A stretch of DNA of 64,000 bases, from the IMG/VR virus record IMGVR_UViG_3300007640_000027, one strand, 5' to 3'. Below the pieces are notes generated by a model, which was given only the letters and a program-made list of their open reading frames with translations, had not been told where the DNA came from and ran no database searches. Position numbers and translations under genes: made by a program. The DNA is from a virus. Positions 45 through 64,000 of this stretch are shown piece after piece; positions within the stretch are counted from its first letter, which is position 1, and every line of letters starts with the position of its first letter.

Positions 45-1124
45 TTATTGTTCATTTATCTTAAAGAAACCATATCCATAACGAACAAGATCTCCTAGGT
101 TATCAACTTCACCAATTCTTTGCAAAGCTTCAAAGGCTGAATTCTTCCCCCTTTGTATAAATATTTCCGATTGTATTTCTGGTGAGTCAACTACGTTCAT
201 TAATACTTCTTCTTTTGTAATTCCCGTGGCAACCAACATATTTGAGGTTAAACCCGATGAATTTAATACAAAAACCGTCTTACCATTCGCATAATCAAAA
301 TAGGTAACATTATCTATCGTATAAGACGTATAACTCGGATTTATGCTCAATACCTGACCATAATCCTGACCAAATTTCTTAACAATAACCGAAGGATTAT
401 ACTTAACCGTACCATATAATTTTAATTCATCCAATTTGGAAGAAGTATAACCCGTAACCACAAATGGAACACTTGTGAAATTGTTGGACGTTTGCTGCGA
501 AACCACATTTTCACTGTCACCCGTGAAAATAAAATCATAATTCAACGGAATACCCGACCAATTACCACCCTGAGGAGTAAATGTAATGTTACCCTGAGGA
601 TTGGAAATCGTTACACCAGAAAAAGGGGATTGAACCGTTTGCAATACCTGAGTCACACCCCAAGGATTGGTCTGCGTTAATGTAACCGTATACCCCGATG
701 GTGTTGGAGGATAAGTGTGTGACACCGCATTTGGTGAAGTTGTTGTTATAATGTCAGTCGTCCCATCACCCCAATCTACCTCATAAGAAGAAAGTTGCAA
801 AAACTTTTTAAATTGACTTGAGGTGTTATATAATAATAATTGGTATACGCTTGAGGGGTTGCCCGAATAAACAAAATTATTAACCACATCTTTTTGTAAT
901 ATAAAACCATCAAAAGGTGAATAAAAACCAATATCATTAAACTTTTGTGTAAATAATATTGGAATGGTTAATCCCGTTAACAAACTATCCCCATTTGTTC
1001 CACCAGATAAAAGGGCGGTCATTGCAGAATAAACACCAAAAGTCACCCCACTTAAAGTTTGTTGTGAAATATTGGTTAACAAACTCTCAGGCGAAACCTT
1101 AATATAATATTGTTCTTGTTCCAT
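45..1124 (-). CDS. Putative virion structural protein with PKD/Ig-like domain
   Basis: 359 aa; YEVDWGDG...SHTY...YTVTLT PKD-like signature; S/T/G-rich; translationally coupled within the baseplate operon. Confidence 0.6.
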   Translation of the reverse strand: MEQEQYYIKVSPESLLTNISQQTLSGVTFGVYSAMTALLSGGTNGDSLLTGLTIPILFTQKFNDIGFYSPFDGFILQKDVVNNFVYSGNPSSVYQLLLYNTSSQFKKFLQLSSYEVDWGDGTTDIITTTSPNAVSHTYPPTPSGYTVTLTQTNPWGVTQVLQTVQSPFSGVTISNPQGNITFTPQGGNWSGIPLNYDFIFTGDSENVVSQQTSNNFTSVPFVVTGYTSSKLDELKLYGTVKYNPSVIVKKFGQDYGQVLSINPSYTSYTIDNVTYFDYANGKTVFVLNSSGLTSNMLVATGITKEEVLMNVVDSPEIQSEIFIQRGKNSAFEALQRIGEVDNLGDLVRYGYGFFKINEQ

Positions 1125-1978
1125 TATGGATTAACATATTCATACCAGTTTATGGATTCATATTTTGTTCCCACTCTTCCCAAATTACCATAAGTTTTAT
1201 AAACCCCATATTCGTGAGAGTTATAATTTAAATCCAACTTATAATAAAAATAATCTTGTGGTGGAAAATTGGTCGGATCAATAATCTGACTTTGTGGTCT
1301 ATTCAAAAAGCGAACAAACTCACCAATTTTGGCGTTAAAGAATTTTGCCGACATATAAAACTCCGTAATGTTATAATAAGATATGTCTTTTAACCAATAA
1401 ACAAAAAACCCTTCCTTATCCCCAACAAAATCCAAATTGAAATTTGGGATGTTAACATCCACAATCTTTTGCAATTGAATTCGTTGTGATCCAATATTGG
1501 TTGAGGTTTTTAAACCTTGCTGGGTCGGAATAATAATGGTGAAATAAATTTTTTGATTTGCGGGATCAGGATTATCATAAAAGTCCAATTTGAAAAAACT
1601 ATTTTTAAATGAATTCACATAAAAATAAATTTCCTTGTTGGTGAAACTCCTTCCGCTAAATGAAGTACCCGTTGATGCGGTATATGATGTTAACCAATTT
1701 GATGCAGATGAGGTCGCCACCGATTGACCATAATCATAAAACTTGAAATTATAATCAATTACAGTTTTATATACATCATTTTGAATGTCCAACCATCTCA
1801 AATGTGAAAAACGATTGACCTCAAAATCTTCAATCGGATTAATCACCTTTTCCACCACATCTTGCTCATATTCTTGGATCAAATCCTCACGTCCCACCGC
1901 ATCCCAATCTATTTCAATCGGAATGTTGATGTATTGCTCATTCGGCTTTAATGATATTCTAAATTTATTCACAGTCAT
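1124..1978 (-). CDS. Hypothetical protein, probably virion/baseplate
   Basis: 284 aa ORF overlapping its neighbours in the structural operon. Confidence 0.55.
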   Translation of the reverse strand: MTVNKFRISLKPNEQYINIPIEIDWDAVGREDLIQEYEQDVVEKVINPIEDFEVNRFSHLRWLDIQNDVYKTVIDYNFKFYDYGQSVATSSASNWLTSYTASTGTSFSGRSFTNKEIYFYVNSFKNSFFKLDFYDNPDPANQKIYFTIIIPTQQGLKTSTNIGSQRIQLQKIVDVNIPNFNLDFVGDKEGFFVYWLKDISYYNITEFYMSAKFFNAKIGEFVRFLNRPQSQIIDPTNFPPQDYFYYKLDLNYNSHEYGVYKTYGNLGRVGTKYESINWYEYVNP

Positions 1979-3671
1979 CTATTACTGGTGGATATGACAC
2001 CACATTATAGTTTATTGCACTTTGTTTTTTCATCGGACGTTGCAAGAAAATAATCTGAGAAAAAGGATAATGCGCCCCATTTAAAAATGGATAATCCACA
2101 CCAATACCATCCGCATCCACATACCCATATTCAAACAAATCTCTCCACCTCCATTTATTTTCATACTCCGAGAAAAATGCATAATCAGGAATGTTATCAA
2201 CATCCTCCCGATTACCCTTTTCAACATAACTTGAATATTCTTTGATCTTCACCATATGGTGAGGCACATATGAATATCCATTCGGCGAATTGGAACTTGA
2301 ATTATTGGAAAAATGATTCGGATTAAATGAAAACTTATGCGACATCTTTGATACCACATACTCTTTTTGAAGATATTGATTGAACTCACAAAAATCACCC
2401 TTCAAAATATCATTTACACCCAACGTTCCGTTATATGTAAATACCCTCGCACCAACATTATAAAACTGCTTCGGGACATTTGACCTGTTATTTACCCAAT
2501 TTGAAAGATTCCACCACGCATCTGTATTATCCGGATTGAAATTAAAATCCCAACCAATCTGCAAATTCGTGTTATTGTTGTTACTGTTACCAAACCAACC
2601 ATAAAAACCCTTATGCACAATCGTAACAAATAACTCAGATATCGGACGATCCAAATTGTCCCTTAATAATGAAATATCCACATCCTTATCAAAACTAAAA
2701 GTATAACTCTGATTACCATTTAATGTGGATATCCTCGTCTTATGATCAGGAGTTATCGCAGAATATTCCAATTTTCTCCTTTTTGGAAATGCATTATTCT
2801 CAAAACCAGCACGAGTTAAATCCAAATCAGTCGGCGTTAACAATACCTGATGCCTTTTTACATAATACTCAGAAAGCGTCTCACCACTATTATTGATATC
2901 AACAATCCTCCTAAATGTCCCCAAAGCACCCTCCAAAGATACACCTTGCGAAAAACCAAAATTAAAAATGGAAAAAACCGTTTTTTCATTTCCATAACTT
3001 TTATCACCCAAAGAATATACCTCAAACTTATCACGACCATTTATCGTGAAATTTAAATATACATAATCACCCACACTCAAATTGTGATTACCACCACAAT
3101 AAAAAGTAATTAATTTTTTACCCGAAACAACCCTGTTTTTGATCACAAAAGGTATTCCGTCAGAAACATTAAATGTTAACGTGTTACCCGAAAACGGATC
3201 CTTAAATTGCATCGTCTGACCCGTGAAATTATCATAAGGTCTGGTCAAATAAATGTCCCAATTATACGTGGACGCACTCTTTGATAGAAATTTTGGATGA
3301 CCCGTAATTCCACTCGTTCTGAAAAAATCAAACTCAGGAAAGGGGGGATAACCTTTCCATACATTATTAACAATTGAAACTTCAGGTTCCAAATAATATA
3401 AAGAATTTAAATATGGTGGATATGTTGTTGTACCTGAAATTGTATTTTCAAAAATATTTGTTATTTTTCCCGAAATTCTAATAATACTACTTTCTTGTCT
3501 TTCCTTATTGAATCTCTGTTCCAAATCAACAATAACTGTTCTATCACCCTCAATCTTATTCAACTGAGAACTTTGAAAAGGTACTTGAACAAATAGATTC
3601 GTATTAGATGAAGACGCGAATCTATCCGACCCTCTAACAATTCTAATATCTGTTGTTTTTTTGTTACCCAT
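1965..3671 (-). CDS. Hypothetical protein, probably virion/baseplate
   Basis: 568 aa beta-rich ORF coupled to neighbours; several [S/T]GxT motifs. Confidence 0.55.
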   Translation of the reverse strand: MGNKKTTDIRIVRGSDRFASSSNTNLFVQVPFQSSQLNKIEGDRTVIVDLEQRFNKERQESSIIRISGKITNIFENTISGTTTYPPYLNSLYYLEPEVSIVNNVWKGYPPFPEFDFFRTSGITGHPKFLSKSASTYNWDIYLTRPYDNFTGQTMQFKDPFSGNTLTFNVSDGIPFVIKNRVVSGKKLITFYCGGNHNLSVGDYVYLNFTINGRDKFEVYSLGDKSYGNEKTVFSIFNFGFSQGVSLEGALGTFRRIVDINNSGETLSEYYVKRHQVLLTPTDLDLTRAGFENNAFPKRRKLEYSAITPDHKTRISTLNGNQSYTFSFDKDVDISLLRDNLDRPISELFVTIVHKGFYGWFGNSNNNNTNLQIGWDFNFNPDNTDAWWNLSNWVNNRSNVPKQFYNVGARVFTYNGTLGVNDILKGDFCEFNQYLQKEYVVSKMSHKFSFNPNHFSNNSSSNSPNGYSYVPHHMVKIKEYSSYVEKGNREDVDNIPDYAFFSEYENKWRWRDLFEYGYVDADGIGVDYPFLNGAHYPFSQIIFLQRPMKKQSAINYNVVSYPPVIDDCE

Positions 3672-6600
3672 TATTGAACTGTTAAATAATCTTTTATGAA
3701 ACGATCCATTGCGGTTTTACCTTTTTTCAATCCGAAATAAAAATGGAACGGAGCACCTACTTTAAATCCATAGTCTAAATAACCCTCACTATCATATCCA
3801 ATTATATTATTTGTTTGACCTGCAGTATTAAATATAGGTGCAGGTACACCATTTATACGGTTGTATATGTATCCAGTACCAAAACCACCAGCAGGATTAA
3901 CATAAGGACTCGGTGAAGTATTAAAATTATCACCTTGATATTCCCTTTTTGGGAATGTTCCAGTATTTGAATTCGCAACAGTATACCAGTTATTGGTTGT
4001 CCTACCCCACAAGCTGGCAGTAAATGCATCATACTTAATAATCCACGGATAACCACTTACTTCTTGTGTGTTACTATAACCAAATTTATTTTGAATACCA
4101 TTGGTTATTGGTCCAATTGTTATCTCGCCATCGGTCAATAATCTTCTATTTACTGTATTAGCACCATAAAAAATACCAATTGTTGTTCTAGCAGGAATAG
4201 GTATCGTAAAACCAAGGAAATTAATGTTTATTAGTTCAGGTATTAATTGTTGAGCACTGCTCGGATAATTACCATCAAAAAATGGTACTATTCCATATTC
4301 TGAATTTATACTGTAAGCCTGTGCAACATCTCCCGTTATTCTACCGTCAAATAATCTTTGGAAAGTCCCTGTTGTATTACTAACTACTCTGTTATTAAAA
4401 AACATATTAATACTCTGAGAATCAAACAAACTCAAACCAGTAGTTCCTTGTTGTTTATTCGCAGAATTAGTTAATATACCAATAGCAGATAAGGCACTAA
4501 TATCATCATTATTGTTATATGTTGTGGGTTTAAGAGTATTAACATAGTAACCCAAATAATTTGGATCCAAGTTAGCGTTAACCAAATATGGCGCCTTTGG
4601 TCCAAGTTCCATCACTGTAGTTGGAAACCATAAGTTTGTATCGTTTTGACCAAAATAACCCGTTCTTGAAGGTACCTGTCCTATAAAATCAAAATCATCA
4701 TTCGCAACATTGTATTTTGATGGTGTACTTCTATGATAAAAATTATTAGTACTATTATCAAAATATACCGGCCCCTGATGATTTAAACCTGAGAAAAAGT
4801 TATTATCATCACCACAATATTCATATCTTTGGACTTCATTGCTTGAATTATAAATTGTGTTTTTTTGAAAAGGTATCATATATAATGAACCGTTTACCCA
4901 ATTATTTTGGAACATTTCACCAATTACATTATCACATAACCCTTGAATAAACTTAATCCGTGAAACCCACTCAAAAAGCATTTTATAATCAACAGGAATA
5001 CTAAGAATAAATGGATCTCTAACTAATACATAACATCCATTTTTCATCCTGTTATATCTATTAATACTCAAACCATAATCACAATTCTTATCTGACGCAG
5101 GTTTTAAACCAAAACTATTACCAAATCCGTCATAACATTGCAAAAGATCCATATTACCACAAGAATAAAATTGATCCAATAATGATTGATCCAAAACTGT
5201 AGTATCTTCTTGTGAGTCCTGACCTGTACCTGATACATCAAAATTGGTGGTTGTCAGTTCTCCACCAATAATATCAGAAACAGACCCTTGATCATCAAAC
5301 AGATACGCCGTAAAATCTCGGTTTAAATGAAGGGCAAAATTTTGAAACTTTAATATAGTATTAATTGTATTATCAAACCCATATTTTTCAAAATCCGATG
5401 TTGGTAATCTGTCTGATCTAAAAACTATATTATTGGAATTTGACATTGTAGTTTTTGGATTACTCGTAGTACCTGAAAAATGATAACTAGATGATATTGT
5501 CCATACCTTTGCCGAAGGATTATTCACAATAATTCCATTGCCATTCGGATTGTTAAAATTAGAAAACTGATATGTTGACCCTTCAACTCTTTCAATTAAA
5601 GTTGTACTTAATTCATTATTAACTGTCTCATAACCGTTAGATCCAAAACTATATGCCGGATCACTCAAAATACTACTAACCGATTTATCTATTGAAGAAT
5701 AAAACGTAAACCCGCTCGTATCATAAGAAACATAATCATTACTATCAGGTACAAATGTAAATGAAGGGTGATATAAACTACTGTTATTATTAACAGAATC
5801 ATTATATAAGTTAGTTGAGGTTAAATAATCATAATGAGATTCTGGTGTTTTATAATCGTGGAACCACGTACCCACACCTGTATTCGGTTGAATTGGAACA
5901 TTTAAGAAATAATTACCTGATACCTCAACCGTCCCATTAAAACTTGTTTCACCAAATAATTTGGATAAATCATATTTTATTTTTTGTTTTGGTGTATATA
6001 CATCCACACCTCTAGTTAAGAAATAAATAACCGCATTTGAGTTACCAGGAATATTAGTTGGACTACTTGCACTTATATCCGTAGTAGCAACATCTCTGAA
6101 CAAATCAATATCCGTAAAATCAATTATACTTCCTGATGAAGTACAAAAAAACTGACTTGTTTTTTCAAAAATATATTTCTTTAATAAACTAACACCAGAA
6201 CCCAATTTACTTTCAGCCTCAGAAAGAGTCATTCCTGTTATAACCTGAAAATACTCAATACCTGAAGTGAAATTATATGAATTTGAAGTTTGCGTATTAT
6301 AAATATCAATATTAACTACCCCAACAGTTCCGTCTGGTTTTATATATGTGACCGAAGACCCCACATAATTTGTAGAACTATTTAAACTACTTCCCGTTAA
6401 ATTAAAATTGTTAAATTGATTTAAACCCGTACCACTATATAGACCAAAGTTATTGTCCGTAATACCAGAAGGGTTAACAAAACTCATAATTGTTGACGCA
6501 GATATGGTCGTACCTGAATCCATCACTAATATTAGTGGTAAATCAGTAAAGGCTTGTGAGTTGTTTGGAACACCCTGCAATTGATCATTAATTATTTCCG

Positions 6601-8674
6601 TTTCTATTATGTTTGGTGTTACAGAATCAAAATAAGTCGCTCTCTGATTCATAGAATTTAAAGACTGAGCCAAAGTTACATTACTACCTACCGTATAGTC
6701 AGTTGGACTCTGAGGTTGTGTATTATAATCTAAGTAATATACTGGTGATAAATAAAATTGATTAAAAATATTTTCATAACCTGTAACCGTATTCAAATTA
6801 GGGTCTACATTGTAACCTGACAATAATTGTGCAGCACGATAAAAAGATCCCACCGTACCCGTATTACATGCCAACGGAGGAAAATGATTTACTGATGTCA
6901 CATTCGCCAATATACCACTACCTGAAACACCTTCAACAACCTCAGGTGGCGGAATATAACCCGGTCTATAATCTGTAGTTGAAGCCGGCTCAGAATTACA
7001 TTCACATAATTCACAGTCAGGAAAAGATAACATTGGAAGTGTGATGTTTTTAAGTGGATTTGTTTTTGGTAGAATAAATCCAGTTAAAACTCTCAGAGGA
7101 AAATACAGTAAACCCAAAATATGTACGACAGGAATAAGAGCAATTAAAGTAGTTTGAATTAATGTAATGAATATATTAAAAATTATATAAGTCATTTTAA
7201 ATTCCTTTTGTGCATCATTTACAGGGAAAGGATTATTTTCATTTCTACAACTGTCATCATTAATTTGTTTTATTCCTAAATGACGATTACGATTTAAACC
7301 CCATTTAAATCTATCAATAAAAGATGCAACAGTATAAACTTTACTATAATCAAATTCATAAAACCTATCTTTACAAGTTACCGCTTCTCTAATCATTGCA
7401 CGACCTTCTGCAGTATTTGGATCTCCATAATCAAACCAATCTAAAGAAAAAGCATACGAATAATTCCTTTGGGTATCACTCGGCGAAGTTTGATTATCTA
7501 CCCAACCTACTTCTTTAATGTTTGGTAATAGATAATGCGGTCTTTGTACCGTTGAATCAGTAGTGTTATTAAACCATTTAAATTTAAATCTATATCTACC
7601 TTTTGTTGGAATACCTCTACTATCATCATTTGATACCACTCTCTCACCAAATTCATTTGTGTAGACATAGTCCAAATTCATCGGTAGATCAATTAAAAAT
7701 GTTCCATTTTCATCAATCGCATTTTCTGAATTCTCAACCCTATATTCCTCCAAAACAGGTAACCCATCAGAATCTAACTCACTAGTTTGACGTATCGCAA
7801 TAATTTCACCAGGCCCCGTCTCCATTCCACATAACCGACCTGTTTTTAATTTTGGCTTACAATTTCGCTTCAAATATTCGTCCCCATTTGAAGATAATAT
7901 AGATCCCATAAACACCGCAGTTGGCTCAATTTCAATACCCAACTCAGATAAATCAAAATCGTGTCTTACTATTCCAATATTACAGATATCATCCTCACCC
8001 CAAAATGGTGTTACATCAATATTAACCGTTTGATTTACAATTTGTGGAAGTGAACCCAAACTTTCTGATGTTTTAAAATTGGACCCTTCAAATTGTTCAA
8101 CGGTTCCTCTACCCATTCTTCTTAAATCTGAAGGTGTCAAAGAAAATTCACCAATATTAGATAAATCCAAATCCAATACTAATTGTTGATTACCTAATGG
8201 AACCCCAACAATCATAAAGTCACCCGACTCATTTGTTCTTACCGTATACTTATAATATTTTTCATAGACATATAATACTTCTTTTCTTGTTAAAACATCT
8301 TCTCGTGACGGAAAAGTACCTGTTGCTCTATGTCCTTGATATTCATCTACATATGGTAGTAGATTATACCTATAACCATCTTCATTTAATTCTGTAACTC
8401 TTTTATATGGGTACAAAGTGGAAATGATTGGATCCGCTTCATCAATTTCATCTAAAGGAATGAATATTGAAACGTGAGCATTAGGTATACCATAACCACC
8501 ATTAGCTATTACTCTACCTGCAACTACACCGTAATCGGCGCAGAAACGACTATATAAATCTTCTTGTCTTAATTTTAAAGATAAAATCTCCAAGTAATCA
8601 AAATCTTGATCTATTTTTACCTGTAAAGTTTTATCGGTATTTAACTCAGTTCTTAATCTATATGACTTAGGCAT
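3671..8674 (-). CDS. Large baseplate-associated structural protein with an internal hydrophobic hairpin
   Basis: ORF track 3671..8707; start revised to ATG 8674 (MPKSYRL) because a TATTTAT motif lies at 8692-8698; directly follows the gp6-like gene; N/S/T-rich. Confidence 0.6.
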   Translation of the reverse strand: MPKSYRLRTELNTDKTLQVKIDQDFDYLEILSLKLRQEDLYSRFCADYGVVAGRVIANGGYGIPNAHVSIFIPLDEIDEADPIISTLYPYKRVTELNEDGYRYNLLPYVDEYQGHRATGTFPSREDVLTRKEVLYVYEKYYKYTVRTNESGDFMIVGVPLGNQQLVLDLDLSNIGEFSLTPSDLRRMGRGTVEQFEGSNFKTSESLGSLPQIVNQTVNIDVTPFWGEDDICNIGIVRHDFDLSELGIEIEPTAVFMGSILSSNGDEYLKRNCKPKLKTGRLCGMETGPGEIIAIRQTSELDSDGLPVLEEYRVENSENAIDENGTFLIDLPMNLDYVYTNEFGERVVSNDDSRGIPTKGRYRFKFKWFNNTTDSTVQRPHYLLPNIKEVGWVDNQTSPSDTQRNYSYAFSLDWFDYGDPNTAEGRAMIREAVTCKDRFYEFDYSKVYTVASFIDRFKWGLNRNRHLGIKQINDDSCRNENNPFPVNDAQKEFKMTYIIFNIFITLIQTTLIALIPVVHILGLLYFPLRVLTGFILPKTNPLKNITLPMLSFPDCELCECNSEPASTTDYRPGYIPPPEVVEGVSGSGILANVTSVNHFPPLACNTGTVGSFYRAAQLLSGYNVDPNLNTVTGYENIFNQFYLSPVYYLDYNTQPQSPTDYTVGSNVTLAQSLNSMNQRATYFDSVTPNIIETEIINDQLQGVPNNSQAFTDLPLILVMDSGTTISASTIMSFVNPSGITDNNFGLYSGTGLNQFNNFNLTGSSLNSSTNYVGSSVTYIKPDGTVGVVNIDIYNTQTSNSYNFTSGIEYFQVITGMTLSEAESKLGSGVSLLKKYIFEKTSQFFCTSSGSIIDFTDIDLFRDVATTDISASSPTNIPGNSNAVIYFLTRGVDVYTPKQKIKYDLSKLFGETSFNGTVEVSGNYFLNVPIQPNTGVGTWFHDYKTPESHYDYLTSTNLYNDSVNNNSSLYHPSFTFVPDSNDYVSYDTSGFTFYSSIDKSVSSILSDPAYSFGSNGYETVNNELSTTLIERVEGSTYQFSNFNNPNGNGIIVNNPSAKVWTISSSYHFSGTTSNPKTTMSNSNNIVFRSDRLPTSDFEKYGFDNTINTILKFQNFALHLNRDFTAYLFDDQGSVSDIIGGELTTTNFDVSGTGQDSQEDTTVLDQSLLDQFYSCGNMDLLQCYDGFGNSFGLKPASDKNCDYGLSINRYNRMKNGCYVLVRDPFILSIPVDYKMLFEWVSRIKFIQGLCDNVIGEMFQNNWVNGSLYMIPFQKNTIYNSSNEVQRYEYCGDDNNFFSGLNHQGPVYFDNSTNNFYHRSTPSKYNVANDDFDFIGQVPSRTGYFGQNDTNLWFPTTVMELGPKAPYLVNANLDPNYLGYYVNTLKPTTYNNNDDISALSAIGILTNSANKQQGTTGLSLFDSQSINMFFNNRVVSNTTGTFQRLFDGRITGDVAQAYSINSEYGIVPFFDGNYPSSAQQLIPELININFLGFTIPIPARTTIGIFYGANTVNRRLLTDGEITIGPITNGIQNKFGYSNTQEVSGYPWIIKYDAFTASLWGRTTNNWYTVANSNTGTFPKREYQGDNFNTSPSPYVNPAGGFGTGYIYNRINGVPAPIFNTAGQTNNIIGYDSEGYLDYGFKVGAPFHFYFGLKKGKTAMDRFIKDYLTVQ

Positions 8675-8750
8675 TAATACTTGGTTTTTTGATAAATATT
8701 TATACAAGTAATTTTAAATAAAATAAAAAGAAAGTATATTGTTACAAGAA

Positions 8751-10589: not shown

Positions 10590-10594
10590 TACTG

Positions 10595-34944: not shown

Positions 34945-35035
34945 GGTTTAAATTTTTTTGTTTTTTATTTATTTATAAATATCTCTTAAAGATTTTTCTA
35001 TTTACTTTTTTTTTGATCCAGTTAAAATCTCTATA

Positions 35036-39305: not shown

Positions 39306-39436
39306 TTTGTTAATTTTATTTGAAATTTATTTTTACTATAAATACTTGGAAAAAAAACAAAAAATTATATTTTCTGTATTTATTTATGGGTCAGTAAGAA
39401 AATTTTCTACCTTTTTTCTGCCAAAAACATTTACCG

Positions 39437-41168: not shown

Positions 41169-41212
41169 ATTGATTATTTATATAAAATAGATTATATTAT
41201 AAATATTATCAA

Positions 41213-48917: not shown

Positions 48918-48989
48918 AATATTTGTTTTTTCCGTCTGAGATATTTTGCTCACACCGCAATGATGTGATTACTCTTTGACATTTTTCAA

Positions 48990-49018
48990 AATATAAGACA
49001 AAAAAAACCTTAAGTCAA
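48990..49018 (-). promoter_or_regulatory. Sigma70-like promoter for polB
   Basis: TTGACT-N17-TATATT on the minus strand. Confidence 0.6.
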
Positions 49019-49039
49019 TTTGGGGTAAGTAATAATTTT

Positions 49040-50458: not shown

Positions 50459-52513
50459 TTATACATTCGGATTATTATCAACAATGTTAAATCCGAAATC
50501 ACATTCAATTTCGTTGGCAATAAAGTCAAAGTCACAAGCCACGGTTTCCAATGAGAAGTTGAAGAAACAACCCAATAAACACGGATAACATTCAGGACAC
50601 CAATAATCATATAAGTCAAACCTGTCCTTTAATAATCTCGCGTTATGTTGAATCTGCGGTGTACTTAATGGTTCCACATACATTCTGAATTGTGAAATAC
50701 CACCCATAAATGTCCCACCAAAATTTTGTTCCAAAAGAATATCGGTCGTCAAACCAGATAAACTGGTACCTGATAATGTTTCATTTGGCATACTCTCAGG
50801 ATCCTGAATATATGGTCCTTCCAAAGCAGAACAACCACTAAACATCAAACTTTCTCTTAACCCTTGAGTACCACCACCCCAACTGATGTTAAACGGAACA
50901 CCCAATTGTTTTTCCTTCTGAGTATTGAGTTCTCTTGGAATAATCTCCTCAAAATCTTCAATAACCATAAACAGATAACCGTTTACGTATAGTTTCAATA
51001 ATCCCTTTCTTTTATCTCTTTCTCTTAACCACTTGCGGTTTAATTCCACAATGTTTTCCTTCTTTTCTTTGGTTGAACCTGGATGTGTCTGTGGTGGCAT
51101 AATGAGATTATATGCAGCACCATTTATCGCAGAAGGATATAACTGTTCCCGAATATCACCCAATCCACCCCAATTCAATAAATCACACCCCTCCAAACTC
51201 TGATATCTTTCAAACACGGCAGTTATCATAACCCATCTTTCCTCAGTGTTTGCTGTCACACAAATAGGGTTATTGTAATTACAATCATCATAAATTCCAC
51301 GAGTGGAACAAATTTCATTAACACAATAACCTGATGAATATGTTAAACCAGTGGTCTCACAACTTCCCGTTGTTACACAATCACCAGTTAATTTTAAATA
51401 TTTCACACAAAGTTGGGGATTTTTGGGGTCACCCTCAAACTTTAAAGACATTGCATTTGAAAACACATCTTTTCCTGGATCAACAGGTGGATTTTCCACC
51501 GTTGTATTATAACCACCACAAGGACCAAGATTATGTTTTATGGTTGTACCCGTGGTTGGAAATACGGTTAAACAATCTGAGTTGGTTACACCAGTGTTTG
51601 CACATGCACAAGTTTTAATACAATTTGTTAATCCTGATGTTACACGGTTATAGGTCCAACCTGACGCATCGCCTGATATATCAATATTAAAATCACACGT
51701 AAATGTTTCGGTTGTTTGAACGTCACCCGATGCTGGATGGTAATACTTGTTTTCGGCTCTCGTTCCAAAGAAAAAGAACGTATTCGCATTATCAGGATAA
51801 ACATCATTTAAATAAACTTCAGAAGGTTGAATTTCATATTCTTCTCTTTGACGAGGTTTAAGAAGAAACTCCGCAGACCAACCTTTATTTACCCTTTCAG
51901 GAAAAACTTCATAATCATACCCGAATAACTTATAAAACCCCTGATAAAAACCACCATATAATTCATTGTAATAACCAACAGTTTCACCACTTTTGGAAAC
52001 TATATTATATATGGTTTTTGAATTACCTGAAAATCTATGGTTTGGCCAATCGGCATAACTGGTAACAGGAAACATTTTCATTCTCCTATCAAAATAATGG
52101 GGATTAAATGTTTCACCAGTATTAATACCCATCGTGAAAGTTAAAGTTTCACCAGTCATCTTATTGTATAATCCGTTGTCCGTCCCCGTTAAACCAATAT
52201 CACATAACGTGCTTGCAGTTAAACAAGTGAGATCCACATTGTCAGGATTATAATAATTCTTTGATACAACAGGATTACCTGAATAATGAACATTCCATAA
52301 TAAAGTCATTTGTTGCGCAGAATCAGATGATGATAAATCCATATTGATCGGCAACCTGTTTCCGTCATTTTCGGCGATTAAATTGGTTGAAAATACAACT
52401 TCTTCATCATAATCACGTTCATCCGACACCAAAGTTAAATCAAAATAACTGGAATCATCAAGACGGAGATCATACCTGTTAAAATAGTAGTTGTTGATAT
52501 TCTGACTCGCCAT
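50459..52513 (-). CDS. Cys-rich virion protein with LamG/ConA-like elements
   Basis: LKLYVNGYL, FMGGISQFRMYVEPLS..QI..N LamG-like motifs; many Cys; nine [S/T]GxT motifs. Confidence 0.55.
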   Translation of the reverse strand: MASQNINNYYFNRYDLRLDDSSYFDLTLVSDERDYDEEVVFSTNLIAENDGNRLPINMDLSSSDSAQQMTLLWNVHYSGNPVVSKNYYNPDNVDLTCLTASTLCDIGLTGTDNGLYNKMTGETLTFTMGINTGETFNPHYFDRRMKMFPVTSYADWPNHRFSGNSKTIYNIVSKSGETVGYYNELYGGFYQGFYKLFGYDYEVFPERVNKGWSAEFLLKPRQREEYEIQPSEVYLNDVYPDNANTFFFFGTRAENKYYHPASGDVQTTETFTCDFNIDISGDASGWTYNRVTSGLTNCIKTCACANTGVTNSDCLTVFPTTGTTIKHNLGPCGGYNTTVENPPVDPGKDVFSNAMSLKFEGDPKNPQLCVKYLKLTGDCVTTGSCETTGLTYSSGYCVNEICSTRGIYDDCNYNNPICVTANTEERWVMITAVFERYQSLEGCDLLNWGGLGDIREQLYPSAINGAAYNLIMPPQTHPGSTKEKKENIVELNRKWLRERDKRKGLLKLYVNGYLFMVIEDFEEIIPRELNTQKEKQLGVPFNISWGGGTQGLRESLMFSGCSALEGPYIQDPESMPNETLSGTSLSGLTTDILLEQNFGGTFMGGISQFRMYVEPLSTPQIQHNARLLKDRFDLYDYWCPECYPCLLGCFFNFSLETVACDFDFIANEIECDFGFNIVDNNPNV

Positions 52514-52527: not shown

Positions 52528-52553
52528 ATAAATACTTTCTTTGCGGTATTTAT
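52528..52553. promoter_or_regulatory. Back-to-back TATTTAT putative late promoters
   Basis: ATAAATA 52528-52534 (minus strand, 14 nt from ATG 52513) and TATTTAT 52547-52553 (plus strand, 16 nt from ATG 52570). Confidence 0.55.
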
Positions 52554-53755: not shown

Positions 53756-53757
53756 TT

Positions 53758-55092: not shown

Positions 55093-55093
55093 C

Positions 55094-55122
55094 TTGTCTT
55101 ATCTTTTGTTTTTTGTTATACT
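55094..55122 (+). promoter_or_regulatory. Sigma70-like promoter ahead of the glycosyltransferase/dUTPase operon
   Basis: TTGTCT-N17-TATACT, 17 nt upstream of ATG 55140. Confidence 0.5.
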
Positions 55123-55139
55123 TCTTGTAAAACAAAAGC

Positions 55140-57046: not shown

Positions 57047-57047
57047 A

Positions 57048-57647: not shown

Positions 57648-58026
57648 TATTAGTCCCGTCTTACCTGATGGGAAAAAGAATTATCTAATTGATATTGACG
57701 GAACAATAACCGATGATATTCCAAATGAACAACCCGAAAGAATGGAAACTTGTTTTCCTTATGAAGGTTCAGTTGAAATTATAAACGGATGGTATGATGA
57801 AGGACATATTATTACCTTCTTTACCTCACGTACAGATGAACATAGAGAAATAACAGAAAAGTGGTTTGAAAAACATAATTTTAAATACCACAACTTATTG
57901 ATGAATAAACCCAGAGGAGGTAACTACCATTGGATAGATAATCACATAGTTAGAGGGACACGTTATAATGGAAAATGGACACCACTAACGGAAAAAGAAA
58001 CCACCATACAAGTATTTGAAGACTGA
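57622..58026 (+). CDS. Small HAD phosphatase (capsule-biosynthesis phosphatase-like)
   Basis: LIDIDGTI, FFTSR, MNKPRG..YHWIDN. Confidence 0.75.
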   Translation: MGSDQQEINISPVLPDGKKNYLIDIDGTITDDIPNEQPERMETCFPYEGSVEIINGWYDEGHIITFFTSRTDEHREITEKWFEKHNFKYHNLLMNKPRGGNYHWIDNHIVRGTRYNGKWTPLTEKETTIQVFED

Positions 58027-59675
58027 TGATTACAATAGGATACAGCACCAAAAAAATTGATCCCGAGTTTAAAAACTACATAGAAAAATCTTGCGGTTTA
58101 CACAACGTGGAAATTATACCATTTGAAAATCCCGGTACTCACTCACTAACCGAAGCATATAACATCATTTTGGAACAATCCACAAATGATATTGTTGTCC
58201 TGTGCCACGATGATATCTATTTTGATACCAAAAATTGGGGTAACAAAATCTTAAAACATTTTAAGAGAAATCCTGAATATGGGATTTTGGGTGTCGCTGG
58301 TTCCATAAAAATACCTGAAAGTGGAATGTGGTGGGAGGACCAAACAAAAATGAGGGGGATCGTAAATCATCAACACGAAGGAAAAAAATGGGAGTCAAGG
58401 TATTCATCCAGTTTGGGTAATAAAATTGAAGATGTGGTACTCGTTGATGGTCTTTTTATGGTGTTAAACAAAAAAAACATCAAAAATCAATTCAGCACCG
58501 ATGTTCAGGGGTTCCATATGTATGATGTTGATTTTTGCATCAATAACTTTATAGAAAAAGTAAAAATAGGTGTATTATACGACATTAGAATTACTCACTT
58601 ATCTATCGGACAAACCAATGAACAATGGGAGAAAAATAGACAATTATTCTCAGAAAAATTCAAAGATCAATTACCTATTCGTATTTATGATAATTTTGAA
58701 AATAGACCATTAAAAGTTTTACTCGGGGTATTAAATTTTCAAGGTCTTACCGGTTCTGAGGTGTCCACATTAGAATTAGCCAAAGGTCTTTCAAAAAATG
58801 GTTGTGACGTATCAGTTATTTCAACAAGCATCGGCAAAAATTTTGATCAGATCTGCAAAAAACATAATATCAAAACATATACCACATCAAATCCACCTGG
58901 GTTTTTGGTCGGAGATGGAAACCAAATTATTAATACTCCACAAGGACAAGTTAGAACAGAAAAAGGAAAATACTATAAAGTTGGTGGTGTTGATTTTGAT
59001 GTTATTCAAACTAACCACACACCAATTACCAACTTATTGTTAAATCTTTATCCTGAAAAAAAATTCGTAACAGTGGTTCGGTCTGAAATAATAGATTTGG
59101 AAAATCCAATTGTGGATGAAAAAGTTAAAAAATACATAACAATACGACCATCAATAAAAGACTATTTAGTTAATGAGTTTAACATAAAAGAAAATATTAT
59201 TGATGTGATTTATAATCCATTTGACACTTCAAGATTTAAAAAAGGTCCCGAACCAAACAATGAAAAAGAAATAATACTTTTTGTTGGAACAATGGATTAT
59301 TTGAGAAAACAATCTATTGAACACTTAATTGAAAAGGTAACATCAGAAAATAAGACGTTATGGTTGGTGGGAAAAGATACAATGGGATACGCGACCGAAT
59401 ATTCTAATAACTATGATAATGTAAAATATTTTGGTGAAAGTGATAAAGTTGAAGATTTTTATCAAAAGTGCGATGTTACCGCAGGAATAATGTTGGGAAG
59501 AACAACGATTGAAGGGTATTTATGTGGAAAACCTGCTTGGATTTATTACGTTGATAATTCAGGAAACATTCAAAATTTTGAATATACAGAAGTACCTGAT
59601 AATCTTAAAGTTTTTGAAAAAGATTATTCAATAAACAAATTTAAGCAAACATATTTAGAGGTTTATAATCAATAA
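58026..59675 (+). CDS. Two-domain glycosyltransferase (GT2-like N-terminal, GT-B/GT4-like C-terminal)
   Basis: SLTEAYN...LCHDD...VDGLF...FHMYDVD; then GSEVSTLELAKGL...IYNPFD...GRTTIEGYLCG. Confidence 0.8.
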   Translation: MITIGYSTKKIDPEFKNYIEKSCGLHNVEIIPFENPGTHSLTEAYNIILEQSTNDIVVLCHDDIYFDTKNWGNKILKHFKRNPEYGILGVAGSIKIPESGMWWEDQTKMRGIVNHQHEGKKWESRYSSSLGNKIEDVVLVDGLFMVLNKKNIKNQFSTDVQGFHMYDVDFCINNFIEKVKIGVLYDIRITHLSIGQTNEQWEKNRQLFSEKFKDQLPIRIYDNFENRPLKVLLGVLNFQGLTGSEVSTLELAKGLSKNGCDVSVISTSIGKNFDQICKKHNIKTYTTSNPPGFLVGDGNQIINTPQGQVRTEKGKYYKVGGVDFDVIQTNHTPITNLLLNLYPEKKFVTVVRSEIIDLENPIVDEKVKKYITIRPSIKDYLVNEFNIKENIIDVIYNPFDTSRFKKGPEPNNEKEIILFVGTMDYLRKQSIEHLIEKVTSENKTLWLVGKDTMGYATEYSNNYDNVKYFGESDKVEDFYQKCDVTAGIMLGRTTIEGYLCGKPAWIYYVDNSGNIQNFEYTEVPDNLKVFEKDYSINKFKQTYLEVYNQ

Positions 59676-59691
59676 TATTAAAATTTTTTAG

Positions 59692-60513
59692 GTGAAAATT
59701 GAAGCATTTGACGAATTTGGCTACATTTTGTGGTATTACGCACCAGTAGCTTATAATAGTTTTTTAAAAGGAGAATTAGAGTACACTAAAAGTAAAATAG
59801 GCACTAAACCTGTTTTTTATTTTTCTGAAAATCATTCAGAAGAGAATAAACATTTTGATCCACCTATTTTAGCAAAAATATTACATCCTGAAGAACATAA
59901 TACTTCGTGTTATACACTTAAAGGTCCAAAATTTATTAATAATAATTGGACTCCTCCACCTTATAATGAAGTATATAAAAATGATAAATTTGTTTATGAT
60001 AAACCAATATTAACAATTCACAATAAAAACACTAAGGAATGGATGTCTCACCCACATAATTACTTTGATTCTGTTACATTAGACAAAATGTTTTCTATGT
60101 TAAAACATAAATTTCAAATAGTGTATTTTAGACCTCCTGATAACTCAGAAAAATTTAAATTACAAAAAGATAAACATCAAAACTCTGTAGATATTGGAGA
60201 TAAAGAAGTTTTAACTAAACATCCTGAAGTTATTGATATTGAAAATTTGTTATTAGAAACAAATAAAATTTACAACGAAGTTCAATTTATGATATTAGCT
60301 AACTCAGATCATCATATCTCACCCGCAGGTGATGCAGTAATACCAGCATATTTTGGTGGTGATCTTTTTATATATAATTGTCCTAATTGTACCTCAGCAA
60401 ATAGAGAAGTTTGGAGAACCGGATCTTGGATGGAAAAGTTATCGGGATCTAAAATTTTTGGTCACAATAATTATGACGAGTTGTTAAATAACATAACTGA
60501 AAAATGGTTATAG
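59692..60513 (+). CDS. Hypothetical protein in the glycan island, possibly glycosyltransferase-like
   Basis: 273 aa, GTG start; context only. Confidence 0.45.
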   Translation: MKIEAFDEFGYILWYYAPVAYNSFLKGELEYTKSKIGTKPVFYFSENHSEENKHFDPPILAKILHPEEHNTSCYTLKGPKFINNNWTPPPYNEVYKNDKFVYDKPILTIHNKNTKEWMSHPHNYFDSVTLDKMFSMLKHKFQIVYFRPPDNSEKFKLQKDKHQNSVDIGDKEVLTKHPEVIDIENLLLETNKIYNEVQFMILANSDHHISPAGDAVIPAYFGGDLFIYNCPNCTSANREVWRTGSWMEKLSGSKIFGHNNYDELLNNITEKWL

Positions 60514-60587
60514 AACTTTTAAATTAAAAATGTATTTAATAATACATATTTTATATAAAATGATTAATTTTTTAAAAAATTAAAATT

Positions 60588-61769
60588 ATGAAAAAAATAG
60601 ACTTATTTAAAGTTTTTATGTCACCTACCGCAGCTGAAGAAGTGGGTAAAGTTTTAAACAGTGGTTACATAGGTCAAGGACCAAAAGTAGATGAATTTGA
60701 AACAATATTAAAACAAAGATTTAACCACGATTATATTTCTACTGTAAATGCAGGAACATCTGCCCTACATTTAGCACTTCATTTATTAAAAAAGCCTTCA
60801 ATAAATCAATTGACTAAATTTGGTAGTTTAATGTATGAATCAAAATGGCCAGGTTTAGAAGATGGAGATGAAGTTTTAGCTACACCGATGACTTGTACCG
60901 CCTCAAACTGGCCTATATTGGCAAATAATCTTAAAATAAAATGGGTAGATATTGACCCAACTACTTTAAATATGGATTTAGATGATTTAGCCAGAAAAAT
61001 TACACCAAAAACAAAAGTAATAATGTTGGTACATTGGGGTGGTTATCCGAATGACTTAGAAAAAGTTAAACAAATTCAAGAAAGAGCATATAGTATGTAT
61101 GGTTTTAAACCCGCTATTATTGAAGATGGTGCACACTCTTTTGGTTCAGAATACAAAGGTAAACTTATCGGTACACATGGTAATTTAACAATGTTTTCTT
61201 TACAAGCAATTAAACATATAACATCTGTAGATGGTGGGTTGCTTTTTTCACCACATAAAAAATTAAATGACAGGGCAAGGTTAATTAGGTGGTATGGTAT
61301 TGACAGAGACAGTGATAGAAAAGATTTTAGATGTGAGGCCGATATTGAGGAATGGGGTTTTAAGTTTCATATGAATGATGTTTGCGCTACGGTTGGTATT
61401 GAAAATTTAAAACATGCTGATGAAATTATTAGTAAGCATAGAGAAAATGCCAAATACTACGATGAAAACTTAAAAGAGGTAAATGGTGTTACATTGTTAA
61501 AAAGAGAAGATGGTTTTGATTCTGCATTTTGGATATACTCAATGTTAGTTGAAGATAGAGATGGTTTTTATAAACATATGGAAAAACACAATATTTCAGT
61601 ATCTCAAGTTCATGAAAGAAATGATAAACACACTTGCGTTAGAGAATATGTTAGTAATCTACCTAATTTAGATAGAACAATAAACAAAATTGTTTCAATA
61701 CCTGTTGGTTGGTGGGTAACACCTGAAGAAAGAGAATATATTGTTGAGACAATAAAAAAAGGTTGGTAA
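60588..61769 (+). CDS. DegT/DnrJ/EryC1/StrS PLP-dependent sugar aminotransferase
   Basis: GPKVDEFE, NAGTSALHLAL, VHWGG, IEDGAHSFG, FSLQAIKHITSVDGG. Confidence 0.92.
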   Translation: MKKIDLFKVFMSPTAAEEVGKVLNSGYIGQGPKVDEFETILKQRFNHDYISTVNAGTSALHLALHLLKKPSINQLTKFGSLMYESKWPGLEDGDEVLATPMTCTASNWPILANNLKIKWVDIDPTTLNMDLDDLARKITPKTKVIMLVHWGGYPNDLEKVKQIQERAYSMYGFKPAIIEDGAHSFGSEYKGKLIGTHGNLTMFSLQAIKHITSVDGGLLFSPHKKLNDRARLIRWYGIDRDSDRKDFRCEADIEEWGFKFHMNDVCATVGIENLKHADEIISKHRENAKYYDENLKEVNGVTLLKREDGFDSAFWIYSMLVEDRDGFYKHMEKHNISVSQVHERNDKHTCVREYVSNLPNLDRTINKIVSIPVGWWVTPEEREYIVETIKKGW

Positions 61770-62191
61770 TGAAATTGAGACCATTAACCATAAATGATAT
61801 TGATTTCTTACTTGAAGTTAGAAATGATGATTCTACACGTAGATTTTTAGAAAATGATTCTATTTTTACGTATGATGAAAGTTTAAATTGGTTTAATACT
61901 ACAAAACCTAATTGGTTTATTATTGAAGTCAATAACGAAAGAGTTGGTTATATTAGAACTAATGGTGATGAAGTTGGTTGTGATATTCATCCTAATTTTC
62001 GCAGAAAAGGTTATGCTCGTCAAGCTTATTTAGAATACTTAAAAGATAAATCATACGCCACTTTATGGGTTTTTGAAAATAACTTTGCAAAAAACTTATA
62101 TAAATCTTTAGGTTTTATAGAAACAGGTGAAGTTAAAATCATTAGAAATCAAAAGTATATATTTATGAAATATGAAAGAAGAAATAGTTAA
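61763..62191 (+). CDS. GNAT N-acetyltransferase (PseH-like, for an amino sugar)
   Basis: IHPNFRRKGYA acetyl-CoA motif, N..AKNLYKSLGF; follows the aminotransferase. Confidence 0.8.
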   Translation: MVMKLRPLTINDIDFLLEVRNDDSTRRFLENDSIFTYDESLNWFNTTKPNWFIIEVNNERVGYIRTNGDEVGCDIHPNFRRKGYARQAYLEYLKDKSYATLWVFENNFAKNLYKSLGFIETGEVKIIRNQKYIFMKYERRNS

Positions 62192-62801
62192 TAAAATTTT
62201 TATTGGTGGTTTTGGTGGTACGGGAAGTAGAGTTATTACTGAAATATTTGAAGCGTTTGGATACTATATCGGAAGAGAAATTGGTGGAAATTCATTAGAT
62301 TTTGGTAAAGGTAAATTTGTAGGTGCATTTGACAGATCTTGGAGAGTTAAAAATTTTAATGAAGTTATTAAGTTTATTAAAGATAATCTAAAAAACTCAG
62401 ATCGTTTTGCCATTAAACATGGTCATTTTATGTTTATTAATGATGTACTTAAAGAAAATTTTCCCGGATGTAAAACAGTATATATTATGAGACATCCAAT
62501 AGATATGGCGGTTAAAAATCAATATAAACCTCATTGTAAATATAGTAATATTAAGTGTAATGATTTAGACGGTAAAATAAAATATTATATAAATGAATCT
62601 ATTAAATCCTGTGAACAATCAGATTTAATTATAAAATATGAAGATCTTTGTGTTGATTTAGAAAATCAACTAAAAATAATTAAGCAATTTATTGGTGATA
62701 ATACTTTATTTTTACCTAAAATAAACATAAAACCTTCATCATCAACAGGTAAACAAGTACACTTATATGATAAGTACGATGTTTCAATGTTAGGGTATTA
62801 A
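62172..62801 (+). CDS. Sulfotransferase-family (P-loop) protein
   Basis: IFIGGFGGTGSRVI 5'-PSB-like loop, YIMRHPID 3'-PB-like motif, IKYEDL. Confidence 0.6.
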   Translation: MKEEIVNKIFIGGFGGTGSRVITEIFEAFGYYIGREIGGNSLDFGKGKFVGAFDRSWRVKNFNEVIKFIKDNLKNSDRFAIKHGHFMFINDVLKENFPGCKTVYIMRHPIDMAVKNQYKPHCKYSNIKCNDLDGKIKYYINESIKSCEQSDLIIKYEDLCVDLENQLKIIKQFIGDNTLFLPKINIKPSSSTGKQVHLYDKYDVSMLGY

Positions 62802-62812
62802 ATTCGTAAATT

Positions 62813-63490
62813 ATGAATATAAAAAATCATCCAATAGAATTTTATATAGATAAGTTAAATAAAAAAGAACATTTTTCATTTACCAGATGGGGAGATGGAG
62901 AGTGGTTTTGTGCTATGGGAGTACAGGGTCAAAATTGTGACTCACATATTTACTTTCCAGAATTAAAAGATGGTCTTAATTTAGCATTAAAAAATAATAA
63001 AGGTTATTATAAGGCAATATGGAATTTAGATCATGGACAAATAAAAAATATCTTAAATAGATTACTACCTTTTTTAAATGATAATAAAATATCTGTAGAT
63101 TGGGTAAATGCCGGAATATGGGAAGATGTTACTCTTAATGGTAAATTAAAAACTTTAATAGATTCTTTAGAAAAAAGAAATTTTGTAATAGTGTCAAACG
63201 ATAACTTAAAAAACTTAAACATCAAATATTGTGATTTTATTACCGTACCTTCACGTAATTGTTTTTTAGATAAAGAAAGGATTAAACTCGACATGATTAA
63301 AATGACTGAAAAATATAAAGATGTAGTATTTGGTTTATCGGCATCTATGGCCACAAATGTAATTGTAGACGAACTTTACGATGTTATCGGAGATAGATGT
63401 ACTATGATTGATTTTGGATCTATATGGGATCCATTTGTTGGTAAACAAACTAGAAGTTATCACAGACAATATAAAACCAATAAAATATGA
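62813..63490 (+). CDS. GT-D fold / DUF1792-like glycosyltransferase
   Basis: FSFTRWGDGE and C-terminal IDFGSIWD. Confidence 0.65.
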   Translation: MNIKNHPIEFYIDKLNKKEHFSFTRWGDGEWFCAMGVQGQNCDSHIYFPELKDGLNLALKNNKGYYKAIWNLDHGQIKNILNRLLPFLNDNKISVDWVNAGIWEDVTLNGKLKTLIDSLEKRNFVIVSNDNLKNLNIKYCDFITVPSRNCFLDKERIKLDMIKMTEKYKDVVFGLSASMATNVIVDELYDVIGDRCTMIDFGSIWDPFVGKQTRSYHRQYKTNKI

Positions 63491-64000
63491 TTCATTGTAG
63501 ACCATATGGTGGAATTTCAAATAGAATGAAATGTATAATTTCATGTATTGCAGAGTATGATGAAATTAATTTAATATGGAAAATACCTGAAACCGGTGGT
63601 GGTGTTAGATGTGAATTTAATGACATTTATAAAAATATCTATAAAGGACATTCAAGCAAAATAGTAAATAGTTGTAAATTTATACATGAAGAAATGAATA
63701 CCTTAGAAGATGAAGAAAAAAACACATTATCTAATGAACTTAAACAAAAATACTTAAATGTAATAAAAACATTACAACCTGTTGATTATATTTTAGAAAG
63801 AGTTAAAGAAGAAAAAGATAAATTAGGTGATTTTAATACTGTTAGTGTAAGAACTTTCAGAAGTTTTGAGCAAGAGTATGAATCTTGGGGTAAATTTTTT
63901 AAAATAGAAAATTTATTTAAAATTATGGATAATTTAGAAGGTAAAATTCTATTAACTTGTGACGATAATGATGTTACAGACGTAATAAAAAATAAATATG
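63487..64000 (+). CDS. Partial fucosyltransferase-like (GT11/NodZ-type) glycosyltransferase, truncated by the window end
   Basis: ATG 63487 (ATGA overlap); MIHCRPYGGISNRM..., VSVRT, ILLTCDD; open to 64000. Confidence 0.55.
   Translation, partial: MIHCRPYGGISNRMKCIISCIAEYDEINLIWKIPETGGGVRCEFNDIYKNIYKGHSSKIVNSCKFIHEEMNTLEDEEKNTLSNELKQKYLNVIKTLQPVDYILERVKEEKDKLGDFNTVSVRTFRSFEQEYESWGKFFKIENLFKIMDNLEGKILLTCDDNDVTDVIKNKY

Follow-up and report, generated by a model that had tools for sequence, protein, structure and literature searches.

Virion proteins that carry sugars added by enzymes of the phage itself have been described in mycobacteriophages, where the sugars are carried by C-terminal extensions of the capsid and tail-tube subunits, whose genes have the glycosyltransferase (GT) genes as neighbours. 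To our knowledge, no short sequon has been defined in that system, and virion glycosylation by phage enzymes has so far been shown for actinobacteriophages only. This O-glycosylation of mycobacteriophage virions by phage-encoded glycosyltransferases is said to have been described by Freeman et al. in Cell Host Microbe in 2023. Here, we analysed a stretch of 64,000 nucleotides (the window) of the IMG/VR record IMGVR_UViG_3300007640_000027; the GC content of this jumbo phage, which is T4-like and uncultured, is 32%. An original prediction for this stretch had proposed that a four-residue motif, [S/T]-G-x-T (written below as the search pattern [ST]G.T), is enriched in virion proteins and acts as a sequon for a glycan coat. 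We confirmed that the enrichment in outer virion proteins is real. The motif behaves as a property of a whole clade of related phages, in whose outward-facing virion proteins hydrophobic-[S/T]-[G/A]-x-T occurs at four to ten times the frequency expected by chance, and the GTs encoded in the same genome are candidates for reading it.

The likeness to the mycobacteriophage system lies in the phage-encoded GTs, in the proposed decoration of the phage's own virion in the cytoplasm before or during assembly, and in a surface glycan coat. The two differ in that the motifs found here are internal and spread over the insertions and fibres of many proteins, with none in the tube, and in that the GTs are encoded away from the head and tail modules. 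The host also differs, being Bacteroidota-like and Gram-negative; the phylum is presumed. Among viruses of eukaryotes, the Mimivirus fibril glycosylation cluster comprises an aminotransferase, an N-acetyltransferase and several GTs, and is associated with viosamine- or bacillosamine-type sugars. Here too, virus-encoded amino-sugar tailoring enzymes (a DegT-type aminotransferase and an acetyltransferase) stand beside GTs, and in both cases it is the particle surface that is, or would be, coated. Mimivirus, however, is a eukaryotic giant virus for which no acceptor sequon is known to be defined, and the two are likened by gene content, not by enzyme homology.

Short acceptor motifs are known from other settings. 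The xylosyltransferase that primes animal proteoglycans by O-glycosylation accepts Ser-Gly-x-Gly, and the chain is sulfated later. The Ser-Gly-centred short acceptor is shared with the phage motif, but the enzyme is a eukaryotic Golgi protein, the fourth residue is another one and the context is acidic, so we note a resemblance only. The general O-glycosylation of the presumed host phylum also uses a short O-glycosylation sequon, D-[S/T]-[A/I/L/V/M/T], but it is periplasmic and depends on an oligosaccharide carrier. As had been claimed, this host-type sequon is distinct from the phage motif: D-[ST]-[AILVMT] shows no enrichment across the five focus proteins of the window (10 vs 15.7 expected), and the general O-glycosylation system of the host is therefore excluded as an explanation.

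A further comparison is offered by SgtA of Clostridioides difficile, a soluble GT-A enzyme that transfers O-linked N-acetylglucosamine (O-GlcNAc) onto the Thr (Ser is tolerated) of G-P-T triplets within collagen repeats of the surface fibre protein BclA3, whose gene adjoins that of SgtA (PMC7157674). Collagen-like glycoproteins of the exosporium, of the BclA type, belong to the same comparison. The phage motif likewise contains G-x-T, the clade also has collagen-like fibres, and a GT-A domain is present. However, G.T without a preceding Ser or Thr is depleted in the phage (63 vs 87 expected), Pro is rare at x (0.4x), and the context is not that of collagen, no collagen repeats being found in the motif-bearing proteins of the window. 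No TPR domain, a feature of SgtA, was detected by Pfam in either window GT or in the 824-aa orthologue from the relative G006 (introduced below). The phage system is not a member of the SgtA/BclA3 type. Finally, a survey of large aquatic Bacteroidota phages ('moraphages') identified four core GT groups and named virion glycosylation as just one possibility (PMC12619734).

Enrichment of the motif in outer virion proteins

The 50 non-overlapping open reading frames (ORFs) of the window were translated, and the [ST]G.T count of each was compared with composition-preserving shuffles. The numbers originally given for five virion proteins (8, 5, 5, 8 and 9) were reproduced exactly. There are 8 motifs in the 359-aa protein (SGVT, SGGT, TGLT, SGYT, SGVT, TGYT, SGLT and TGIT; shuffle mean 0.68), 5 in the 568-aa protein (0.35), 5 in the 1678-aa protein (1.79), 8 in the tail sheath (1.6), seven of which fall at residues 119-349, and 9 in the 684-aa protein (0.66). 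Enzymes and several structural proteins are motif-poor, as had also been stated, with 0-1 each in RNR, helicase, PolB, SNF2, tube, wedge and Baseplate_J. The genes are located in Table 1.

The motif had been picked after it was seen, and the proteins that carry it are rich in Ser, Thr and Gly (13.9% S, 12.7% T and 10.6% G in the sheath insertion), as would be expected if the enrichment were an artefact of composition, repeats or post-hoc choice. Shuffles confined to blocks of 15, 25 or 50 residues were therefore used as a control for local S/T/G richness. The enrichment survives both the global and the local shuffles, with p<=0.002 in four proteins and p of about 0.04 in the 1678-aa protein. 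The order of the elements matters: the four strongest proteins contain 30 [ST]G.T, vs 1-15 matches for the 11 other orders. To counter the post-hoc objection, all a-b-x-c, a-x-b-c and a-b-c triplets were scanned in the five proteins without bias. SGxT ranked first (24 vs 2.54 expected, p 7.5e-16) and TGxT second, all patterns after these were at p ~1e-4 or worse, and no neighbouring triplets were co-enriched. The signal was moreover replicated in the orthologues of two complete relatives and is absent from three unrelated phage controls (see below). With shuffles, permuted orders, triplet scan, relatives and outside controls all contradicting it, the artefact explanation was rejected, and we leave it next to no likelihood. 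A cause at the DNA level was rejected as well. The codons at all three fixed positions are diverse and match background usage, so the signal sits in the protein and not in the DNA.

The context of the motif was profiled with 529 non-redundant instances from 129 enriched proteins of the window and related loci. Position -1 alone departs from the background, with hydrophobic residues at 1.6x, charged residues at 0.3x and Gly at 0.4x; no periodic or extended context was found around these instances. Position x is depleted in Pro, as given above, and is often L, V or I. By pattern, [ST]G.T was observed 121 times vs 24.6 expected. Two variants had been suggested, of which [ST]A.T is enriched (31 vs 11.3, 2.7x) and [ST]G.S barely so (24 vs 18.7, 1.3x), while [ST]S.T is at expectation (28 vs 29.3). 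At position 4, Thr far outweighs Ser. The full motif can therefore be written as hydrophobic-[S/T]-[G>A]-x-[T>>S]; it is compact and without longer context.

Many relatives of the phage are present in IMG/VR. The record closest to the window (G001) is a fragment of 18 kb from which the 359-aa gene is missing, and the isolated phages are distant relatives only, as judged by the sheath, the nearest being the Microcystis phage Mel-JY01. Two complete relatives were rebuilt: G006 (297 kb, 321 ORFs), which is syntenic with the window, and the more distant G009 (318 kb, 389 ORFs). In G006, 11 of the 321 ORFs are enriched at p<0.01. These include collagen-like fibres with an S74 chaperone domain, a fibre array, the orthologues of the 359-aa and 684-aa proteins, the gp23-like major capsid protein and two uncharacterised proteins beside the head genes. 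The 9 enriched ORFs among the 389 of G009 belong to the same orthologous virion families. For the 359-aa protein, 6 motifs vs 0.82 expected were counted in G006 and 7 vs 0.77 in G009, and the latter genome also gave 4 vs 0.44 for the 568-aa orthologue and 8 vs 1.84 for the 1678-aa orthologue. The remaining 310 ORFs of G006 contain 65 motifs (75.6 expected) and the remaining proteome of G009 contains 107 (110 expected), so the non-virion proteins as a whole neither accumulate the motif nor avoid it. By family, the clade-wide enrichment is highest for the 684-aa protein (7.6x), followed by the 568-aa protein (4.5x), the 359-aa protein (3.9x) and the sheath (3.1x). Across the relatives, the Baseplate_J, wedge and tube families have zero motifs, and enzyme families range from 0 to ~2x, each averaging less than one motif per protein. 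The motif is thus a clade-wide property, restricted to virion proteins in the two complete relatives.

Outside the clade, the virion proteins of T4 (18 vs 14.9) and of Escherichia phage ESCO5, a Phapecoctavirus (20 vs 13.3), show no enrichment, nor does the virion block of Mel-JY01 (3 vs 6.4), whose sheath has no motif at all. The motif is therefore not general to myovirus virion proteins. The giant virion proteins of Mel-JY01 (L209:24535-35359) contain a tandem repeat of their own, marked by FDWDG and GFH in 13-14 copies vs ~0.2 expected. The triplet scan applied to the virion proteins of Mel-JY01 returned the overlapping triplets DWG, WDG, GFH and FDW at p ~1e-20, all from the one tandem repeat.

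Position of the motif and a possible structural origin

The motif-bearing proteins had been described as otherwise unrelated, and this is borne out by hhalign profile-profile comparison of the four tested families (Prob <1%). No repeat family was found by Pfam or PHROGs for the 359-aa, 568-aa, 1678-aa and 684-aa proteins. Without detectable homology among the four tested families, the motif does not stem from one repeat fold; a single shared repeat domain was rejected for them on these scores and on the lack of co-enriched triplets, unlike in the Mel-JY01 repeat. Conserved columns number 15 for the motif. Among the permuted patterns, most have 0-3, and TG.[ST], which shares residues with the motif, has 8. 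Rare columns, which represent clade-specific gains, number 68 vs 24-45 for the permutations, and some lie inside clade-specific insertions.

We were able to place the motif in two proteins. The capsid protein of G006 has 4 motifs, all at residues 137-304, within a 227-residue segment that replaces residues 126-248 of T4 gp23, which we take to be the region of the E-loop and the insertion domain, on the outside of the capsid. The capsid protein of G009 has 3 motifs in the same expanded segment, one conserved and two at new positions. Similarly, the Mel-JY01 sheath aligns to residues 435-1060 only of the window sheath, and the motif-bearing N-terminal insertion falls outside the alignment. Where it can be mapped by such alignments, the motif is located in what are predicted to be clade-specific outer insertions of the sheath and of the major capsid protein. 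The AlphaFold2 models were poor, with mean predicted local distance difference test (pLDDT) scores of 54.8 (684-aa protein) and 42.8 (359-aa protein) and with most motifs in segments below 50; confidence is too low for exposure to be mapped from them. The best explanation of these data is a short linear motif that this clade of aquatic jumbo phages maintains by selection on exposed accessory parts of the virion, namely in the insertions of the sheath and of the capsid protein, at the periphery of the baseplate, in the fibres and in the 684-aa protein.

The motif could instead be structural, hydrophobic-[S/T]-G-x-T forming a turn and the start of a strand (ST-turn-like) in the beta-rich accessory modules and fibres that are used and shuffled within the clade, with no modification involved and the GTs serving otherwise. 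We consider this rather unlikely, but a number of features fit it and weigh against a sequon. The Gly and the hydroxyl residues are conserved at fixed columns, the residue at -1 is hydrophobic, x is often L, V or I, and the preponderance of Thr over Ser at position 4 is what a beta strand would predict. Motif runs are spaced 9-17 residues apart. The few motifs that fall in confident model regions are placed at strand boundaries, for example the SGYT that starts a PKD-like strand, and the fibre of one relative combines the classical fibre motif LPLSGGTVTG with TGGT-containing repeats. On the other hand, a structural motif should recur in other myoviruses, and T4, ESCO5 and Mel-JY01 reach just 0.5-1.5x. 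The absence of detectable homology among the four families and of a periodic motif context also speaks against it, as do the new copies that arise at non-homologous columns and in clade-specific insertions. In addition, no Pfam fibre-repeat or beta-helix repeat family was found in the window proteins. Even if purely structural, the motif would mark the exposed virion modules of this clade with unusual sharpness at the sequence level.

Two fibre ORFs of the relatives are very rich in the motif, one of 1555 aa (L168 13210..) with 39 vs 7.6 expected and one of 1864 aa (L090 15317..) with 18 vs 2.9. The former includes LPLSGGTVTG-type units, so part of the fibre signal of the clade overlaps the classical fibre motif.

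A compact, clade-specific motif in non-homologous exposed parts of the virion points to a reader acting in trans, since physics alone should act equally in T4, ESCO5 and Mel-JY01. A clade-specific trans-acting reader of the motif is what fits best.

Sugar genes as candidate readers

At least four GT genes had been proposed for this genome; Pfam supports two in the window, with three GT domains between them. Of the tailoring genes proposed with them, the DegT aminotransferase and the GNAT acetyltransferase are supported by Pfam, and the sulfotransferase-like gene is a weak match. Both GT genes were found in every relative tested, including distant marine ones. Across the clade they share 54-69% identity (GT-B) and 41-57% identity (fused GT), vs 30-40% for virion proteins. 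The GT-B family is virus-only, its nearest Atlas clusters being almost entirely viral. No homologue of either GT was found in Mel-JY01 by the search that recovered both in G002-G006. Being core to the clade and virus-only, the GTs are the obvious candidate readers of the motif.

The genes beyond the two core GTs vary between close relatives. The 824-aa orthologue of the fused GT in G006 (L184:136-2610; G006 190136-192610) has a third domain, a polysaccharide pyruvyl transferase (PF04230, E 4e-9), which implies a pyruvylated glycan in that relative, and G005 has a cytidylyltransferase near the GT genes. Two conserved GTs with variable neighbours resemble a core priming and extension pair with a variable tailoring island, as found in surface-glycan loci. 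A pseudaminic-acid pathway was considered and rejected: the best match of the aminotransferase is PseC and the GNAT protein weakly matches PseH, both below cut-off, and a NeuB was not found in any of five relatives, which leaves the nonulosonic-acid route incomplete.

In the mechanism that we propose, the first sugar would be added to the Ser or Thr of the motif in the cytoplasm, by the 402-aa GT-B or else by the fused GT through its GT-A domain, and the remaining GT domains would lengthen the glycan chain. SgtA, described above, provides a precedent for a soluble GT-A that acts on Thr. The aminotransferase, the acetyltransferase and the sulfotransferase-like protein of the window, or the pyruvyl transferase and the cytidylyltransferase of the relatives, would then modify the sugars, and the variation in these tailoring genes would give each phage a specific charged glycan coat. 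The sequon originally predicted is favoured by the shuffles, the absence of homology, the clade-wide restriction to virion proteins and the outside controls; its link to glycosylation is one that we infer in all three of its parts, namely an action of the GTs on proteins, the role of the motif as acceptor and the identity of the sugar-bearing residue. That the motif is the acceptor sequon of a phage-encoded protein O-glycosyltransferase is the most likely of the readings, in our judgement with somewhat less than an even chance. The full version is tentative and rather doubtful: hydrophobic-[S/T]-[G/A]-x-T would be a genuine sequon for O-glycosylation, with the 402-aa GT-B family or its GT-A partner domain as a priming enzyme peculiar to viruses, a charged glycan with amino, acetyl, sulfate or pyruvate groups would cover sheath, capsid, baseplate and fibres throughout a widespread clade with serotype-like variation, and the sequon would be the first one defined for phage virions.

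Several points besides the structural ones speak against glycosylation at the motif. We know of no O-glycosyltransferase that reads such a sequon; literature searches did not find one with a matching sequon, and a search on PF13712 gave nothing useful. No member of the clade without GTs was found among the relatives examined, so the co-variation of GTs and motif rests on one phylogenetic contrast. ESCO5 has GT-B homologues together with rml genes, yet its virion proteins are not enriched; at 27% identity these homologues are uninformative, and Phapecoctavirus was dropped as a test of co-variation. Avoidance of the motif in non-virion proteins was not seen in the window, G006 or G009. The GT operon itself lies among exonuclease, dUTPase and HAD genes, next to the late gene block of the 684-aa protein, and it lacks the TATTTAT element described below, its upstream region resembling that of PolB. 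The GT genes do not adjoin the capsid or tail-tube genes: in G006, the GT operon occupies 187-192 kb, apart from both the tail module (110-165 kb) and the head module (195-225 kb).

The sugar locus of ESCO5 (L190:30493-33771) encodes a dTDP-rhamnose-type pathway (annotated thymidylyltransferase, 3,5-epimerase and two nucleotide-sugar epimerases) and two homologues of the 402-aa GT-B; its sugar acceptor apparently has no annotation.

The reader could also be something other than a GT. The motif might direct another modification (phosphorylation, sulfation or ADP-ribosylation), serve as a chaperone or assembly signal, or form a Thr-rich patch that binds host polysaccharide, with the GT island modifying DNA or the host envelope. 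An enrichment that is particular to the clade and spans unrelated exposed proteins argues for some trans-acting reader without naming which, and the placement of the GTs among nucleotide-metabolism genes, behind an upstream region of non-virion type, would suit such a role. So would the thymidylate-synthase-family gene of G006; DNA glucosylation of the T4 type combines a hydroxymethyl-pyrimidine pathway (dCMP/dUMP hydroxymethylase) with the GT. The PF00303 member of G006 (321 bits) has a counterpart in G004 (317 bits), thymidylate synthase and hydroxymethylase not being told apart by the match, and none was found in G002 and G005, whose genomes are both incomplete. Nevertheless, the conserved neighbours that were examined include no conspicuous kinase or other modifying enzyme, and the aminotransferase, GNAT, sulfotransferase-like and pyruvyl-transferase genes suggest a tailored surface-type glycan over a DNA base modification. 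We regard a reader of this other kind as distinctly unlikely.

In all relatives, a distance of about 2.6 kb separates the 684-aa gene from the core GT gene, and this fixed place suggests that its product could be a glycan-binding or glycan-processing part, beyond being a mere substrate. Its confidently modelled core gives weak Foldseek matches (PDB) to lectin-type jelly rolls (best E 0.011) and may thus be a lectin-like jelly roll. The protein also has conserved CxxC-type pairs near its C terminus.

If the sequon is true, these phages would coat themselves much as mycobacteriophages do, differing in host phylum, targets, gene placement and the possession of a definable sequon. A four-residue rule would then make glycosylated virion surfaces predictable from sequence in thousands of uncultured aquatic phages, and the coat would form a surface layer that varies between phages and bears on adsorption, aggregation, grazing or host defences in a widespread group of environmental jumbo phages. 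The motif would also provide a portable tag for cytoplasmic glycoengineering, a short sequon and one or two soluble GTs being enough.

Coordinates, upstream elements and other genes

Table 1. Virion and sugar genes of the window discussed in the text, with their positions
Feature	Coordinates	Strand	Remarks
359-aa baseplate-distal or fibre-associated protein	45..1124	-	weak PKD-like domain; motif density highest in window
568-aa virion protein	1965..3671	-	no known family
1678-aa virion protein	3671..8707	-	adjoins Baseplate_J gene; enrichment marginal in window
Tail sheath, 1063 aa	36114..39305	-	Pfam Phage_sheath_1 and Phage_sheath_1C at residues 780-1051
Motif cluster in clade-specific N-terminal insertion of sheath	38250..38951	-	residues 119-352; 7 of 8 sheath motifs
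684-aa protein	50459..52513	-	Cys-rich; preceded by TATTTAT
Core GT-B glycosyltransferase, 402 aa	55140..56348	+	weak Pfam Glyco_trans_1_4; phrog_7162, E 1e-46
Core fused glycosyltransferase	58026..59675	+	GT-A Glyco_tranf_2_5 (E 7.5e-29) and GT-B Glyco_transf_4
273-aa island gene	59692..60513	+	no family assigned; in some relatives only
DegT-family sugar aminotransferase	60588..61769	+	best NCBIfam match PseC, below cut-off; variable among relatives
GNAT acetyltransferase	61763..62191	+	weak PseH-like match
Sulfotransferase-like protein	62172..62801	+	weak matches, below Pfam cut-off

The sequence TATTTAT is found 12-62 nucleotides upstream of the start codon in 14 window genes and may be a middle or late promoter core of the phage. 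The genes include those of the sheath, tube, wedge, 684-aa protein, DUF3721 protein, SNF2, superoxide dismutase (SOD) fusion and helicase, as well as the genes at 26854 and 31570; examples of the upstream regions are 39337-39350, 52530-52545, 34970-34985 and 41175-41205. Since it also precedes the helicase, SNF2 and SOD-fusion genes, the element is no clean marker of virion genes. The T4 late promoter TATAAATA was tried as the upstream element and is not enriched (17 vs 12.2 expected). A second element, TTGTCTTAT[A/C]TTTTG, is common to the regions upstream of the GT operon (55093-55139) and of the PolB gene (48954-49039). It looks like a Bacteroidota-type -7 element, and its sharing suggests that the GT operon is transcribed together with replication genes.

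Three other window genes were noted. A 215-aa protein (49040-49687) matches phrog_3704 ('ferredoxin', E 3e-93) and has a homologue in just one of the related loci fetched. The tail module includes a 1554-aa protein (26854-31518) with an OmpA-family peptidoglycan-binding domain at residues 772-843. Finally, the SOD fusion is a 526-aa protein (43032-44612) that contains a complete Fe/Mn superoxide dismutase (Sod_Fe_N and Sod_Fe_C) in residues 50-239 and continues into a long additional stretch at the C-terminal end, and its gene is among those preceded by TATTTAT.

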